The notes under the pieces: generated by a model | Told to the model about the DNA's origin: nothing | The model's input: the letters and a program-made list of their open reading frames with translations, nothing else | Database searches by the model: none | UHGV virus genome: UHGV-0041739 | Origin: a virus | Reading direction: 5' to 3' (one strand) | Length of the DNA stretch: 35,963 nt | Shown here: positions 21,310 to 29,756 of the stretch, in pieces | How positions within the stretch are numbered: position 1 is the stretch's first letter | How the letters are laid out: each line of letters opens with the position of its first letter | Program-made: the position numbers and the translations under genes

Positions 21310-22792
21310 GGGTCAGCATGTCGATAAGTTCTGCATCATCCATCTGCGGATATAATGAAGCGGCTTTGTTCATGGCGGCTTCCGGGCCATCTTTCAGCAC
21401 AGAAAGAATGACGGGTTTCAGCAGGGGATCAACCGAACGCTGCCAGTCTTCCGGTGAAACGCCCATCCGGTCGATATCATCCTTCTGCGGGATATCATCA
21501 GCGGATAATGCGGCCTCTTTCTGCGAACCGTTATCCGGGACAACCGGTTGTACAGTAAACACGGCTTCATCACCGACCGGCTGTGGAATATGAAGTTTTT
21601 CCTGTATCCAGGAGACCGGAATACGCATTCCTGCCGCCAGTTTCGGAATGGCGTCAGACAGTGCCGTAATATCACCCGCTTCACTGGTATCAAATACAAT
21701 GCCCGGCAGGCGGTTAATATCAATGGTGCTGTTACTGTTCAGTGCCAGCAGGGGATAGATCAAGTCACGGTTAATACTGCGGGCAAGCTGGCCCACATCC
21801 GCGTTACGGATTTCCCGGCGAACCTCGTCATGCACTTCACCCAGCGACCGCGCACCTTTATCTCCGGCCTCTGTGGTCAGGGTGCCGCCCAGAATGGCTT
21901 TTGAAATCGCTTTTTCTGCCCAGCCAATCATCGCCATAAAGGGGTCTGACTGACCATCTGCGGCGCTCTGAAAATCCAGCGTCATCCCCATCGGAATAAT
22001 GCCACCGGCACGTCGCCCGATATCCATCACGGCCTGCATCAGCGTGGCTTTCTCGCGGTTCGTGGAGCCGGTCGGATATTTACCGACGCGCATAGGGAGT
22101 CCGTAAATTTCCAGGAACTCCGCAAAATCACGCACGGAATAGTTTTTAAAAATAAAAGGCCAGATAAGCGTGCGCACAAGGCCATTGGTACCAACGTACC
22201 CGGTGCGGGATTTGGCCCGATGCATAAACCAGCCGAACGGTTGCAGCTCCAGCCCGTGATAAGACGTATCACGCAGACGTAATTCGTTCAGATTGTCGGG
22301 GTTCGCGCAGAACAGCGCCGGATCGCGATGATGCAGCGCCACCGGCACGCGCATTTTCCCAAGCCACCCCCATTCAATCTCCTGCATGGAATAACCCTTG
22401 AGAATGGCATCACCGGCATCAAACAGGGCATCTTCAAACCACGCCGCATCATGCAGATATTCATTCAGCATGTCGGCGTCTTTTTTCTCCTGTGCACTGG
22501 CATCACGTGCCGGAGCGATGCGCCATTCCAGCGCCTGAATGGCAAGGCGGCGTTTGCTCAGTTCGGAAAAAAGGTGGGTGTCCTTTTCTTCCATATCAAA
22601 GGCCAGGTCAGCCTGTGCTGTCAGATCACCGCGTTCGGCATCACGCAGCATCTGCGCGGCCCGGTTCGGCGTCACGCCACTGGAGGGATGCTCCTGTGTG
22701 CGCTTCATGACCATTGCCAGCTCATCGCTGCGGGTCTGCATTTCATCGTCAAAATCAAACGGCTGCCCGGAAATATCCAGAATACGGCCCAT
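21254..22792 (-). CDS. H: Portal protein (Mu H-like, DUF935 type)
   Basis: 512 aa; 1-nt overlap with terminase stop. Confidence 0.85.
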   Translation of the reverse strand: MGRILDISGQPFDFDDEMQTRSDELAMVMKRTQEHPSSGVTPNRAAQMLRDAERGDLTAQADLAFDMEEKDTHLFSELSKRRLAIQALEWRIAPARDASAQEKKDADMLNEYLHDAAWFEDALFDAGDAILKGYSMQEIEWGWLGKMRVPVALHHRDPALFCANPDNLNELRLRDTSYHGLELQPFGWFMHRAKSRTGYVGTNGLVRTLIWPFIFKNYSVRDFAEFLEIYGLPMRVGKYPTGSTNREKATLMQAVMDIGRRAGGIIPMGMTLDFQSAADGQSDPFMAMIGWAEKAISKAILGGTLTTEAGDKGARSLGEVHDEVRREIRNADVGQLARSINRDLIYPLLALNSNSTIDINRLPGIVFDTSEAGDITALSDAIPKLAAGMRIPVSWIQEKLHIPQPVGDEAVFTVQPVVPDNGSQKEAALSADDIPQKDDIDRMGVSPEDWQRSVDPLLKPVILSVLKDGPEAAMNKAASLYPQMDDAELIDMLTRAIFVADIWGRLDAAADH

Positions 22793-24447
22793 TACCAGCC
22801 CCCTCGTTCAAACTGGTGATAATCATCAAAATCATCGTTATCAACATCATCACCACGGTGGCGTGGTGGCAGCGCCTGTATGCTGTCCTCGTCGATAACA
22901 AAACCATTCATATAAGACGCCCTGACAGCCATACAGAGCGCCACGGCAAAGTCGCCATGTCGTCGGCCTTTACCGCCTTCATCTTTTGTGCGCCCCTTAT
23001 CAATCTGCGGAATACCTTTGTCCACCTTGATGTGGAGCAGGTCATCAAGTGTGGTCTGGTGCCGGGCAATCGTGATGTTCTGCGCTTCAAACTCGCCTTT
23101 CAGTTTTGGCATCCACTCCTGATACCAGGATGCGGTCAGATTCACACAGTCGATCATCTCCGGGCCATAAATCAGACGGGCGGCTTCTGCCAGATAACCG
23201 CCGTTACCGGTGGCATCAAATGCAGCGCCGGTAAAACGGGGCAAACGGGACAGAATGAATAAAAGGATTTGTCGCTGCTGGTCATAGGTCACATTACGCA
23301 GCTCCACGCGGAAACATTCGCGTTTGCGTAAGTCTGGAGTGATGGCAAGCGGCACAAACACCGTCAGGTCGCCACGGCGTGCAAAGTCTTCGCCCAGTAC
23401 GTGTTTATTGAGCGGTGACAGCGCATCGAGCAACGGGAGCAGCTCCTGTTCACACCAGTCCTGAACGATACCGTGGCGCATCTGCGGTGTCAGCGATTCA
23501 AAATCGTCCGGGGCTTCAAAACGCAGAACCGGGATATCCCGCGCGGGTGTCATGGCAGCTTCAATCAGGACACGGGACAGGTAAGCGCCACCGGATTTTT
23601 TGGGAATACAGCCGTATTCCTCGTCGGCGCTCTCTTTGTTCGGCGCGTTCCGGTACAGGCCATCACGCCAGGCTTTCTCCGCTTCCGGTGACCACGGCTG
23701 ATTCGTAACATAACAGATACGCCGGTACAGCCCGTCAGCGATGGCATCGTCCAGCGTGATACGGTGAACGCTGTAATCCTTGCGCCCCTCGCGTGCATCC
23801 TGAATGTACTGGTTAAACAGGTTATCGACGCCGTTATGTGTCGATATGATCCGCACGCGGGCACCCCACATGGTGAGCGCAAAGGCCGCTTTCAGGAGTT
23901 CGTCCAGGGCTTCATGAAATGCCGCTTCATCAATCACCACATCCCCCTGTAAACCACGCAGGTTAGACGGGCGGCTTGAAAGCGCCTGCACCTTAAATCC
24001 ACTATTCGGAAAGCGGATCATGTAGGTGAGGATTTCTTCTTTTTTGTCGCTGTCCCAGAAGGTCTGCTCCCAGACGTCAGCCTTTGCCAGCTGGTTAAAG
24101 GCGCGGGCAAACAGGGCACAGGCGGCGATGTATTCCAGCGCCATTTCCTGACGGGAACCCACATAAAAGACGTTGCGACCACCACGGCGACGCGGCTTTG
24201 CGGCCGTCATGACATTGCGGCCCGCTTCGGCCCATGTCAGACCGGTACGACGGGATTTTTCAGCAATGCAAATCTGGCTTTCATCCTCAAACCAGCGGCG
24301 CTGATAGCCCAGAAAAACCGGTTCATTGCGGGGCTGTGCTTCCCCGATATCGGTCACGATATTCACGCCAAGCAGTTCGGCTTCCTTACGCAGGTCGATT
24401 TTGCGGGGCGCATGAAGGGCTTTAAGTTTGCTTTCTTTGGTGCTCAC
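22792..24447 (-). CDS. Terminase large subunit (Mu gp28-like)
   Basis: 551 aa; GTG start; position upstream of portal. Confidence 0.85.
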   Translation of the reverse strand: MSTKESKLKALHAPRKIDLRKEAELLGVNIVTDIGEAQPRNEPVFLGYQRRWFEDESQICIAEKSRRTGLTWAEAGRNVMTAAKPRRRGGRNVFYVGSRQEMALEYIAACALFARAFNQLAKADVWEQTFWDSDKKEEILTYMIRFPNSGFKVQALSSRPSNLRGLQGDVVIDEAAFHEALDELLKAAFALTMWGARVRIISTHNGVDNLFNQYIQDAREGRKDYSVHRITLDDAIADGLYRRICYVTNQPWSPEAEKAWRDGLYRNAPNKESADEEYGCIPKKSGGAYLSRVLIEAAMTPARDIPVLRFEAPDDFESLTPQMRHGIVQDWCEQELLPLLDALSPLNKHVLGEDFARRGDLTVFVPLAITPDLRKRECFRVELRNVTYDQQRQILLFILSRLPRFTGAAFDATGNGGYLAEAARLIYGPEMIDCVNLTASWYQEWMPKLKGEFEAQNITIARHQTTLDDLLHIKVDKGIPQIDKGRTKDEGGKGRRHGDFAVALCMAVRASYMNGFVIDEDSIQALPPRHRGDDVDNDDFDDYHQFERGGW

Positions 24448-24501
24448 AGGTGAAAAATCCGGTATAAATTTTCAGGCTTTAATCAGTAAAAAGAGGTTGC
24501 T

Positions 24502-24687
24502 ATGAAAGAAAAGCTGACCATTGACCAAAAAATTGAGATTGCAAAAATAGCAAGTGACTTTGTTATCGCTGGCATGAATACGAATAAACAGCCAGCGTGT
24601 CTTGCCGGTTCTGATCAAAATGTGAAGTCAGAACGGGAGTTGTTAAAACATATTTATCAGTTGCTGGAGGCAATGATTACTGATTAA
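24502..24687 (+). CDS. Small plus-strand ORF (61 aa), AT-rich, antisense to the late operon; candidate moron
   Basis: AAGAGG Shine-Dalgarno 6 nt before ATG; TATAAAT -10-like element ~35 nt upstream; visibly lower GC than flanks; no recognisable family. Confidence 0.4.
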   Translation: MKEKLTIDQKIEIAKIASDFVIAGMNTNKQPACLAGSDQNVKSERELLKHIYQLLEAMITD

Positions 24688-24871
24688 TTTGTGACTCTCT
24701 GATGATCTGGCCCGCGATACGCGGGCCAACCACAATCTGCATTAACAGATACAGTGATTCGGCTTTTGTGACGATATGAATATTGCCCTCCTCAGCCAGC
24801 GCCGCTTCGACGATGGGTTTGAGTTTCAGGGCAATTTCCGCAGACGTTTTTTCTTTGGTTTCAACAGCCAT
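24677..24871 (-). CDS. Small hypothetical protein (64 aa) between the gp27-like gene and terminase
   Basis: AAAGGAG SD ~9 nt upstream of ATG (MAVETKEK...); 3' end overlaps the plus-strand ORF by 11 bp; contains GGCCCGCG-ATA-CGCGGGCC hairpin (24709-24727). Confidence 0.45.
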   Translation of the reverse strand: MAVETKEKTSAEIALKLKPIVEAALAEEGNIHIVTKAESLYLLMQIVVGPRIAGQIIRESQINQ

Positions 24872-24884
24872 TACATTTTCTCCT

Positions 24885-25463
24885 TTACGCTTTCCCCAGC
24901 AGCACATCACGGATACGCTGCTCCAGTTCTTCGCTGATGCCATCCTGCCCGCGCAGTTCTTCGCTGACAGCGTTTGCCGCTTCTTCTGCGAATGCCTGGC
25001 GGATCTCTTTCTCGCGCCGGTGGCTGGACATTGCTGTGGATTCCAGACGCTGTGCCGCCAGCATGGCGTTTTTCAGCAGTTCAATATCCACGTCATCTTC
25101 CGGTTTTTCGATTTGCCGCATCATGGCTTTAAAAAGCTGGCTGCGGGCCATTTCCAGAATCAGCTTTGTGGTTTCCCCCATTGGCTTGTCGCCAAGTTCT
25201 GCGGTCAGTGCTGACGTCATTTCACGCATCTGTCGCAGGTTATGGCCTACCTGTTCGACGTTTGTCGCGTAACGGTTCAGGCCGGAACGGGAGAGTTTCA
25301 TGTCATCAGGCAGTCCGGCATCTTCAATCAGGGCGTTAATTTCTTCCAGAATGCGGGCCTGTGGGATTGCCTTGTCACGCAGCATTTCATGCAGTGTTTT
25401 GCGCACGTTTTCCGGCAGCAAATCCACTTTTGAAGCCCGTCCCCGTGTTTTCCTGTCCATCAT
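24885..25463 (-). CDS. Mu gp27-like protein (DUF3486; putative DNA-binding packaging protein / small-terminase candidate)
   Basis: 192 aa, N-terminus ...RGRASKVDLLPENVRKTL typical of DUF3486; position upstream of large terminase. Confidence 0.7.
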   Translation of the reverse strand: MMDRKTRGRASKVDLLPENVRKTLHEMLRDKAIPQARILEEINALIEDAGLPDDMKLSRSGLNRYATNVEQVGHNLRQMREMTSALTAELGDKPMGETTKLILEMARSQLFKAMMRQIEKPEDDVDIELLKNAMLAAQRLESTAMSSHRREKEIRQAFAEEAANAVSEELRGQDGISEELEQRIRDVLLGKA

Positions 25464-26070: not shown

Positions 26071-26499
26071 TTACAGCCCTGACGACATACCCGGCATTAA
26101 TCCCGGCACCGGTAACACATCATCATTCAGCAGCTGATTATTACGGGGAGCGGGCACAGCACCAGAACCGGCGCTGAACATAAACACCGCCAGTGCATTT
26201 TTTTGCTCCTCTGTCAGTGGCCTGTTCAGATGGGTATTTAACGTGTCATAAACAGGCTTCAAATCTGCTTTCAACAGCATGATGCATTCACCATAGCTGT
26301 AAGGGCGTTGCTGAATATCAGGACCGTGATGGTTAAGGCAAACAGTCAGTTCGCCGTGCTGATCTGTGTATGGAAGGTACTGAACAGAAGCCAGCGATGA
26401 ATCACCATCGCCGGACAACTGCCAGCCACCACATGCCGCCAGTACCACGATGGCAAGCGTTCTGATGATGCGGGGGAGACGTTTTTTAAAATCGTTCAT
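26071..26499 (-). CDS. lys: SAR-endolysin homolog (GH24/T4-lysozyme-like fold) with N-terminal signal-anchor
   Basis: N-terminal KKRLPRIIRTLAIVVLAACGG SAR-like segment; catalytic-region motif YLPYTDQHGELTVCLNHHG parallels R21/T4L (Y.D..G..T.G.GH); position after C as in Mu. Confidence 0.7.
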   Translation of the reverse strand: MNDFKKRLPRIIRTLAIVVLAACGGWQLSGDGDSSLASVQYLPYTDQHGELTVCLNHHGPDIQQRPYSYGECIMLLKADLKPVYDTLNTHLNRPLTEEQKNALAVFMFSAGSGAVPAPRNNQLLNDDVLPVPGLMPGMSSGL

Positions 26500-26503
26500 G
26501 AAA

Positions 26504-26528
26504 CCCTCCTTCGGTAATAAAAGGAGGG
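26504..26528 (-). promoter_or_regulatory. Hairpin sequestering the lys Shine-Dalgarno (CCCTCCTT / AAGGAGGG), within the Plys leader
   Basis: Perfect 8-bp stem with 9-nt loop; downstream arm contains AGGAGG located 5 nt before the lys ATG. Confidence 0.45.
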
Positions 26529-26570
26529 TAACTCAGGGGAATTTGCAGACGGGGTTATTATTAATTAACA

Positions 26571-27525: not shown

Positions 27526-27736
27526 GATGCTTTTCCCTGTAACGCTGGCAGTGGTGAATAATTTCTGGCATATCGACTGACTGCCAGCCTTTCATGTAAT
27601 AGCTCCCGTGGGTGCCATCGTGCCCTGTGTAATCCATTGGCTTTGGTGGTGGACCTCCGGCCTCCCGATGCAACACCTCCTGTCGTAAACGTTCGCGTCT
27701 GCCAAACCGAAAGGACGCATCCCACCCTTTACCCAT
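27518..27736 (-). CDS. Small hypothetical protein (72 aa or shorter)
   Basis: ORF bridging the GH108 and holin-like genes; His/Arg-rich; start uncertain. Confidence 0.3.
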   Translation of the reverse strand: MGKGWDASFRFGRRERLRQEVLHREAGGPPPKPMDYTGHDGTHGSYYMKGWQSVDMPEIIHHCQRYREKHHV

Positions 27737-28289
27737 GCAGAACCTCCCGGCAGGCGCTGGCGAGCAGATCCAGACGGTTAAACCAGCCGTTCAGATATTT
27801 CCCCTGCGAGGCACTGGATTTGATAATCCCTGCGTAATAGCGGGAACGACGCAGGAAACACTGCAACAGCAGCCAGTCAGTATCGGCACGCAGTACGGCT
27901 GCGCGAGTGTTTTTGCCGACGATGCCATCATCATCAACACCTGCTGCCGCCTGGAGGATTTGAATTGCGCGTTTAACACCGTGCTGAACGGCAGCATCAA
28001 AGACGAATAAGGAAACACCATCAGGCCATTCGTTACACTTTGCCGCCAGCCAGTAATCACGCCAGTAGATTTGCGCCGCCTGCTCGTGGGTTAAATCTTT
28101 AATACGGGTATCAGGCTTCCCGTCACCGTTAACATCGGTTTTGCCATCAATAACGCCGTCGCGACGGTCAGAAATGCCGTATTTGGTTTCGCCGCCACGG
28201 TCAGTGGGATCATTAACGTAACCACCTTCAACATCAGGCCGTATAACAAAATTCAGCGAATGAAGGAATGCAGGGGAAAACTCAGGCAT
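27729..28289 (-). CDS. Peptidoglycan hydrolase-like protein, GH108 N-terminal domain plus PG_binding_3 C-terminal domain
   Basis: Motif VEGGYVNDPTDRGGETKYGIS matches the GH108 signature (EGGY.NDP.D.GG.T.YGI); C-terminal ...FVFDAAVQHGVKRAIQILQAAAGVDDDGIVGKNTRAAV resembles PG_binding_3. Likely start ATG at 28289 with AGGAGGG SD. Confidence 0.7.
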   Translation of the reverse strand: MPEFSPAFLHSLNFVIRPDVEGGYVNDPTDRGGETKYGISDRRDGVIDGKTDVNGDGKPDTRIKDLTHEQAAQIYWRDYWLAAKCNEWPDGVSLFVFDAAVQHGVKRAIQILQAAAGVDDDGIVGKNTRAAVLRADTDWLLLQCFLRRSRYYAGIIKSSASQGKYLNGWFNRLDLLASACREVLHG

Positions 28290-28336
28290 GTTGCCCTCCT
28301 GTAATGAACGTTTTATCGTCACAACAGAATATTGAG

Positions 28337-29339: not shown

Positions 29340-29756
29340 ATGAAAATTGATTATGACGAGATAGCCAGAATATTTGATGTATTCCTGGAGGCCGACACTG
29401 CATTCATTCGACTGGAAGATGTCGGCTGGGATCGTTCTCAGCGGCACAGCGACAGCCATCAGAAGCTGGTTTTCCATCTTCTGTTGCTGGTTGAAAATGG
29501 TTTTATCAGCAACAGATATCTGGAAACAGGCACCGCAAAAAGCATTGGTCTCACCCCGACAAGCCTCGGATATTCATATTCAGGCACCAGTGTCAGACTC
29601 ACACAAGATGGTCATGATTTTGCGAAAGCACTACATCAAAAACCCATTCTTGAGCGTATAAAACAGGAGCTTGCCGACGCCCCGATGACGCTCGTAACAG
29701 ACGTCGGCAAACAGTGGTTAACCTCGTTTCTTAAAAAGAAACTCGGGATTGAATAG
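29340..29756 (+). CDS. Plus-strand accessory ORF (138 aa), DUF2513-like winged-helix protein; candidate moron embedded antisense in the early operon
   Basis: AAGGAA SD 8 nt before ATG; start 15 bp from the gemA start (divergent); 3' end overlaps the neighbouring minus gene; ...TQDGHDFAKALHQKPILERIKQEL resembles the DUF2513 pattern (from memory). Confidence 0.55.
   Translation: MKIDYDEIARIFDVFLEADTAFIRLEDVGWDRSQRHSDSHQKLVFHLLLLVENGFISNRYLETGTAKSIGLTPTSLGYSYSGTSVRLTQDGHDFAKALHQKPILERIKQELADAPMTLVTDVGKQWLTSFLKKKLGIE

Follow-up and report, generated by a model that had tools for sequence, protein, structure and literature searches.

The window analyzed here, a stretch of 35,963 nucleotides, is a Mu-like prophage with its late operon on the minus strand, and it matches E. 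coli SE11 at 100% identity over the searched region (1201 bp). Between the two terminase genes of this operon, two small open reading frames (ORFs) run toward each other, which raises the question of whether they are genes at all, and, if they are, what a convergent pair does at this place. An earlier note, made from the sequence alone, had described the gap, both ORFs with their 3' overlap, the translation and -10-like signals of the plus-strand ORF, and a GC-rich hairpin, and had suggested a moron or a toxin-antitoxin-like or regulatory module. The descriptive part was confirmed by ORF and Pfam analysis, with the addition that the hairpin lies inside the coding region of the minus-strand ORF. 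The features of the locus are as follows.

22792-24447, minus strand: large terminase (TerL), homolog of Mu gp28 (PF03237), the downstream flank
24448-24884: gap of 437 bp between gp27 and TerL, holding both small ORFs
24448-24501, plus strand: divergent spacer of 54 bp from the TerL start to the plus-ORF start, with a -10-like element TATAAA(T) at 24463-24469 and a Shine-Dalgarno (SD) motif at 24491-24496
24502-24687, plus strand: 61-aa gene (plus ORF), phrog_25148 family (E 3.2e-47), candidate prophage-expressed inhibitor (Tab-like)
24677-24871, minus strand: 64-aa late-operon gene, phrog_21398 family (E 1.6e-41), candidate antidote (anti-Tab-like), with an 11-bp 3' overlap with the plus ORF
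24709-24727, either strand: 8-bp G/C hairpin GGCCCGCG-ATA-CGCGGGCC, 22 nt past the plus-ORF stop and within codons G49-Q55 of the 64-aa gene
24872-24884, minus strand: spacer of 13 nt from the gp27 stop to the 64-aa start, with the SD motif AGGAG at 24880-24884, 8 nt before the ATG
24885-25463, minus strand: gp27 (DUF3486), the Mu small terminase subunit (Pfam PF11985, Phage_Mu_Gp27, E 1.3e-52), the upstream flank in the late operon

Several diverged loci were recovered for comparison and are named by L numbers (e.g. L004, L009, L014, L017 and L019). Substitution patterns identify both ORFs as real genes that evolve under purifying selection, with dN/dS values spanning about 0.12-0.53 across the two. 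For the plus ORF, dN/dS was 0.16 between the window and L004 and 0.12 between L009 and L014, and for the 64-aa gene it ranged from 0.13 to 0.53. Among the E. coli variants, the first 17 codons of the plus ORF contained 0 non-synonymous versus 2-7 synonymous changes. The non-synonymous count did not exceed 3.5 even in comparison with the most diverged variants, L017 and L019, for which synonymous sites were near saturation. Because non-synonymous changes are few while synonymous sites are saturated, the constraint acts on the peptide MKEKLTIDQKI(E/Q)IA.IA, and not on the DNA. The remainder of the plus ORF is highly variable (total length 61-80 aa), with a helix-loop-helix pattern retained. The family of the 64-aa protein shares the conserved motif E-A-L-Y-L-L-M-Q...G-P..A-G. 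Between variants, the two proteins vary jointly in their C-terminal parts and are 89-100% identical in their N-terminal parts; as the two C-terminal segments are adjacent in the DNA, such a joint change is possible by a single recombination event. The signals for translation are also maintained. The SD motif of the 64-aa gene follows directly after the gp27 stop codon, and this spacer is kept in L004, L009 and L014. The plus ORF is preceded, 5 nt ahead of its ATG, by the SD motif AAGAGG, and the 54-bp spacer that contains it is near-identical in L004, L009, L014 and L017 despite the diverged ORF bodies.

Next, the junction was compared with that of related phages, as the earlier note had proposed for Mu and D108. 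The approximately 430 bp are missing from Mu, D108, SfMu and several Mu-like phages of Yersinia, in which the gp27 stop overlaps the ribosome binding site of gp28; the gp27 DNA of the window is about 96% identical to gene 27 of Mu and D108. On the basis of this comparison, the interval is an accessory, dispensable two-gene cassette located exactly between gp27 and gp28. It is rare in E. coli, being present in 3 of 5426 complete genomes. A Mu-type junction was present in 44 E. coli genomes; of these junctions, 31 were empty, 9 contained a 267-bp remnant, 3 contained this cassette, and 1 contained a three-gene version. The remnant retains an intact third gene, termed ORF-A, and a 64-aa gene with an internal deletion. 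In an assembly collection, the exact 61-aa protein was found in 968 blocks, and in 24 of the 24 contigs that were read it was encoded within an intact Mu-like prophage. Searches of 50,697 phage records with the insert DNA, and of phage records by tblastn with a distant plus-ORF variant, gave no match. Of the 50,697 sequenced phages, only the Yersinia phage Tongde contained a representative of the plus-ORF or the 64-aa family.

A 10-nt direct repeat, TTTCTTTGGT, flanks the insert (24432-24441 and 24850-24859; chance expectation about 0.15). In TerL as well as in the 64-aa protein, it codes for T-K-E close to the N-terminus, and it may be a footprint of cassette gain or loss.

A scan of species representatives also yielded a single match, in Apirhabdus apintestini (L020, CP138906.1), which was considered as a decayed prophage that has kept the plus ORF. 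This reading was dropped, because 1-bp indels occur in every gene, at about 1 per 400 bp in gp27, the 64-aa gene and TerL relative to the 93%-identical L019, a pattern more suggestive of assembly error than of true decay.

The earlier note had also remarked on a lower GC content than in the surroundings, and a windowed calculation bore this out. The GC content was 0.376 for the plus ORF and 0.416 for the whole gap, compared with 0.515 for the window and 0.54-0.55 for the flanking genes, and the plus ORF ranked in the lowest 2% of the 186-bp windows. The low GC content is true of the E. coli variants (0.38-0.40), not of distant members of the family (0.45-0.51). The interval is not universal among Mu-like phages, the plus-ORF protein is conserved, and the GC content lies below that of the flanks, each of which goes against a ground for refutation named in the earlier note.

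The gene order was the same at every locus: the small terminase gene (TerS), an optional ORF-A of about 58 aa, the 64-aa gene, the convergent opposite-strand ORF, and TerL. The opposite-strand gene was antiparallel to the late operon in all loci and situated between TerS and TerL in 13 of 13 lineages, and the 3' overlap of the convergent pair was 11-29 bp throughout. This arrangement extends to a second, D3112-like background (L031, L035 and L038), in which TerS is a DUF1804 protein and TerL has no similarity to Mu gp28. In L038, a separate 65-aa gene is absent, and the opposite-strand ORF converges on the gene of a 161-aa protein, whose end is a domain clearly related to the 65-aa protein (Smith-Waterman z = 9.4). 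As this protein carries the partner domain, a partner domain faces the opposite-strand gene in all 13 lineages, and the opposite-strand gene was never seen alone. The reverse does occur: Tongde contains the 64-aa gene and ORF-A, and the opposite-strand ORF is absent.

The D3112-like loci contain, after the DUF1804 TerS, a protein of 133-161 aa of unknown function (L031 1966-2388, L035 1983-2384, L038 1703-2188). In L035 and L038, a copy of the 64-aa domain forms its C-terminus, so that L035 contains two copies of the domain. ORF-A, absent from the window, follows gp27 and precedes the 64-aa gene on the late strand. It was found in Tongde (L001, 2078-2254), in L017, L019, L021, L023 and L025, and alone in L024 (742-912), and in the 267-bp remnant of the 9 E. 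coli genomes no other gene is intact. No family match was obtained for ORF-A.

A remote-homology search together with a prediction of membrane segments, both suggested in the earlier note, placed the proteins in families and gave no known domain, fold or hydrophobic segment. Searches of Pfam, NCBIfam, PADLOC, PHROGs and PDB sequence profiles with both peptides, ORF-A and the variants returned only the two PHROG families given above, both of unknown function, and PGAP annotates both ORFs as hypothetical proteins. Both proteins are predicted to be small, soluble and all-helical, with a pI of about 5.7 each. AlphaFold2 (AF2) predicted a helical hairpin for the 61-aa protein (pLDDT 88) and three helices for the 64-aa protein (pLDDT 84), and fold and structure searches with both proteins gave no match. 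By the Kyte-Doolittle scale, neither peptide contains a hydrophobic segment (maximal 19-residue scores of 0.81 and 1.34, GRAVY of -0.24 and 0.18), and no helix-turn-helix (HTH) was detected in the cassette. The plus-ORF family comprises about 10 clusters among 5.8 billion proteins, all of them at the TerS/TerL junction. A profile search with the 64-aa family recovered only 6 clusters among 1.84 billion representative proteins, and this family is therefore very narrow; homologs were found in Tongde (45% identity) and in the D3112-like loci (hhalign probability 96%). All named members of both families are from Enterobacterales.

The -10-like box of the plus ORF is situated 33 nt ahead of its ATG and only 16 nt from the TerL start codon. 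The putative promoter has a good -10 box and a -35 region that matches in only 3 of 6 positions, a scan for consensus promoters made no call at this site, and the -10 boxes are even weaker in distant plus-ORF variants. A C-dependent Mu late promoter was also considered and rejected, as no CCCC-type element like that in the window's own Plys region is present upstream of the plus ORF.

Downstream of the plus ORF, the hairpin is the only perfect all-G/C 8-bp hairpin in the window. Its folding z-score was -4.2 for the plus strand and -4.4 for the minus strand, and none of 200 shuffles was as stable. A hairpin occurs at the matching relative place in 8 of 9 lineages, with different sequences building it in L031 and L038, and it is absent in Tongde, which is without the plus ORF. 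Its stability is no better than chance in several lineages, and its arms are the preferred codons GGC CCG and GCG GGC of the conserved G-P..A-G motif. A canonical intrinsic terminator was not found at the hairpin, because it lies inside the 64-aa coding region and a T-run is missing on either strand; it is a probable 3'-end structure of the plus-strand transcript. An Rfam search yielded only a sub-threshold chance match to a snoRNA.

These properties can be compared with the moron concept (Juhala et al. 2000 and Cumby et al. 2012, both cited in the preprint 10.1101/2024.10.15.618418). Like phage morons, the interval is extra DNA between genes that are adjacent in relatives, it has a low GC content, a putative promoter of its own and a downstream hairpin, and it is positioned within a late operon that the lysogen does not express. 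Unlike morons, it is a convergent two-gene cassette, one gene of which belongs to the late operon. Compared with the autonomous transcription unit of a moron, it has a -10 box and a hairpin, but a poor -35 region and no T-run. As far as genome comparison can show, the moron suggestion of the earlier note is supported by the absence from Mu, D108 and SfMu, the deviant GC content and the selected antisense gene; however, the unit is a two-gene cassette and not a lone mini-gene, and its promoter is only putative.

The closest parallel, which the earlier note had not drawn, is offered by the Tab/anti-Tab pair of the Pseudomonas phage JBD26, a Casadabanvirus (Patel et al. 2024, Nat Commun 15:1644, PMC10884400). 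Tab is made by the prophage and blocks the tail assembly of invading phages via their tape measure protein, and anti-Tab (gene 30), a late-operon product encoded right after TerS, binds to Tab and shields the lytic cycle of its own phage (PMC10884400). Deletion of tab and atab together was harmless, whereas a deletion of atab only was unobtainable (PMC10884400). The authors found Tab homologues to be limited to close relatives of JBD26 and predicted that further blockers of virion assembly are hidden among small prophage proteins (PMC10884400).

We compared the two loci gene by gene. In JBD26, the order is gp29 (TerS), gp30 (anti-Tab), gp31 (Tab) and gp32 (TerL), with an overlap of 1 bp between gp29 and gp30. 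In both systems, one partner thus directly follows TerS on the late strand; in the window, the ATG of the 64-aa gene is located 13 nt past the gp27 stop. The other gene is on the opposite strand and convergent, with an overlap of 47 bp between gp31 and gp30 versus 11-29 bp here, and its start is divergent from TerL across a short spacer, of 30 bp in JBD26 and 54 bp here. A hairpin follows about 20 nt past the stop of the opposite-strand gene in both; that of JBD26 has 9 bp, lies 19 nt past the tab stop and is more stable in the tab-sense RNA. In both cases, the two proteins are small (60-85 aa) and without a known domain, the pair is dispensable, and the opposite-strand gene was never found without its partner, which for the present cassette is derived solely from genome comparison. 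The D3112-like carriers strengthen the parallel: their TerS is 39% identical to gp29 of JBD26 and their TerL 48% identical to gp32, and the cassette therefore occupies the very slot of Tab/anti-Tab.

There are also differences. The proteins are 61-80 and 63-65 aa long versus 83 and 83 aa for Tab and anti-Tab, the hosts are Enterobacterales, the terminase pair of the window is that of Mu (gp27/gp28), and ORF-A, for which Tab/anti-Tab has no counterpart, is often present in the cassette family. Homology to Tab (YP_010299225) and anti-Tab (JBD26 gp30) was sought and rejected, with hhalign probabilities of 0.2% and 0.16% and Smith-Waterman scores within the range of shuffles and cross-controls. 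An apparent likeness of the C-terminal helices between Tab and the plus-ORF family failed a shuffle test. Matches of Tab in tblastn searches were confined to Pseudomonas phages, at identities of at least 95%.

From this analogy, we propose that the cassette may be a functional counterpart of Tab/anti-Tab, consisting of a lysogen-expressed inhibitor and a late-expressed antidote, a proposal to which we give an even chance, and the pair is a candidate new phage-exclusion pair. The timing of expression, the physical interaction, the defence phenotype and the target are what we infer by analogy, as follows. In the lysogen, with the late operon silent, the 61-aa protein would be produced from its own -10-like box and strong SD motif, and it would block a late step, e.g. 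virion assembly or packaging, of related superinfecting phages. Upon the phage's own lytic switch, late transcription would pass antisense through the 61-aa gene and would yield the 64-aa protein from its own strong SD motif, and the latter would bind and neutralize the inhibitor. Support for the Tab-like reading comes from the fact that it would explain the position, the orientation, the asymmetric co-occurrence, the antidote-only state of Tongde and the joint change of the C-termini. The asymmetric co-occurrence also matches a prediction of the Tab model, because loss of atab alone is lethal in JBD26 (PMC10884400). Points that weigh against the reading are the missing homology to Tab and anti-Tab, the poor -35 region, the single recombination event that could equally account for the joint C-terminal change, the hairpin with its arms of preferred codons and its chance-level stability in several lineages, ORF-A as a third gene unmatched in Tab/anti-Tab, and the structure searches, which gave no support. 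A wider claim, namely that the cassette represents a second family of prophage defence at a late or assembly step with a late antidote, unrelated in sequence to Tab/anti-Tab and common to Mu-type and D3112-type Enterobacterales phages, has in our estimation somewhat less than an even chance of being right.

The most serious alternative is that the junction is a permissive insertion hotspot occupied by two independent accessory genes, i.e. a moron expressed in the lysogen and a late accessory protein, for example an anti-defence protein or a packaging helper, without a functional link. The junction is indeed a polymorphic hotspot with at least four states, and its parts are gained or lost separately, as exemplified by Tongde with the 64-aa gene and ORF-A and by APEC-type genomes with ORF-A only. 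Such regions of Mu-like phages are, moreover, known to gather small accessory genes (PMC4378225). The acr/aca loci of Pseudomonas Mu-like phages (region RGP G) resemble the cassette in that they consist of small, fast-evolving, low-GC accessory genes in the head-gene region of transposable phages; unlike the cassette, they lie between G and the protease/scaffold genes on the late-gene strand and include an HTH regulator (PMC4378225). However, the opposite-strand gene never occurred without a partner domain in 13 lineages and two terminase systems, and the convergent 3' overlap of 11-29 bp was kept throughout, whereas unlinked genes would be expected to be separated more frequently. We therefore regard a mere neighborhood of two unrelated genes as unlikely.

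A second alternative concerns TerL itself. In Mu, the strong SD motif GAGAGGG of gp28 overlaps the gp27 stop codon, whereas TerL of the window starts with a GTG that lacks a recognizable SD motif (upstream sequence ...ACCGGAUUUUUCACCU GUG; window 24432-24447 and 24448-24470), and the insertion thus removes the translational coupling of gp27 and gp28. The window shares the TerL-proximal 15 nt (GGTGAAAAATCCGGT) with Tongde and with the decayed remnant of E. coli.

An 11-nt perfect inverted repeat was also observed, which links the 5' untranslated region of the plus ORF (24479-24489) with the 11-bp overlap that holds both stop codons (24677-24687) and has a chance expectation of about 0.04. It is partly retained in L004 (9 nt) and L009 (8 nt, shifted) and absent from more distant variants. 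It could allow pairing of the ends of the plus-strand mRNA, or, alternatively, it could bring the 64-aa stop near the TerL start in the late mRNA.

The cassette might accordingly be seen as a cis-acting or antisense module for TerL expression, in which plus-strand transcription interferes with late transcription or processes the late mRNA, and the peptides are secondary. The lost coupling with a GTG start devoid of an SD motif, the -10 box close to the TerL start, the inverted repeat that joins the ends of the region from the 64-aa stop to TerL, and the TerL-adjacent position across two terminase families would all fit. This is countered by the selection on peptides and not on nucleotides, with saturated synonymous sites and a near-invariant N-terminal peptide, by the lack of conservation of the inverted repeat beyond close relatives, and by Tongde, which retains the TerL-proximal nucleotides without the plus ORF. 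A primary role in the control of TerL therefore seems improbable.

Type I toxin-antitoxin systems such as txpA/RatA have convergent transcripts that overlap at their 3' ends. The cassette shares with txpA/RatA the convergent genes, the overlapping 3' ends and the location in a prophage, and the logic of an inhibitor plus an antidote is plausible, so that a classical toxin-antitoxin or abortive infection system, either of type I with convergent RNAs or of type II with a host-poisoning protein pair, has to be considered. However, both partners are conserved, soluble proteins, a hydrophobic toxin is missing and Rfam gave no match, unlike type I systems; and, unlike type II systems, the genes are convergent and not co-transcribed, and matches in Pfam, NCBIfam, PADLOC and PDB were not obtained. 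We consider a classical system of either type highly improbable. The toxin-antitoxin-like module of the earlier note survives only in the loose sense of an inhibitor with an antidote; as a classical type I or type II system it is not supported, in view of the convergent orientation and the lack of a hydrophobic peptide and of matches to toxin-antitoxin or defence families. Finally, short ORFs are common and neither gene has a functional annotation, but chance reading frames in a non-coding spacer are effectively refuted by the comparative data, i.e. dN/dS values well below 1, a frame that stays open across saturated variants of 61-80 aa, conserved SD motifs and confident AF2 models.

If the Tab-like reading is correct, a new protein family would be added to prophage-encoded defence, and position and orientation between the terminase genes would predict such pairs where sequence similarity cannot. 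To date, Tab/anti-Tab has been described from just a narrow set of Pseudomonas phages. Antidote-only phages such as Tongde would be escapers, and counter-defence would account for the state of Tongde. In E. coli Mu-like prophages, the reading is easy to test with the genetics of Mu, and Mu and D108, which are without the cassette, are therefore natural sensitive controls. Should the hypothesis fail, two real, conserved small genes remain that are annotated merely as hypothetical proteins.

Elsewhere in the window, a second opposite-strand gene of 138 aa (29340-29756, plus strand) is located in the early or semi-essential region. Related contigs have a gene call for it as well. It matches phrog_585 (unknown function, E 2e-31), with no match in Pfam, and it may be another moron. 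The lysis region is unlike that of Mu, with a 142-aa endolysin of the Phage_lysozyme family and an extra protein with GH108 and PG_binding_3 domains further upstream (26071-26499 and 27729-28322). Upstream of the endolysin start, an inverted repeat, CCCTCCTT...AAGGAGGG (26500-26560, minus strand), includes the SD motif and might be a translational control element of this late lysis gene.
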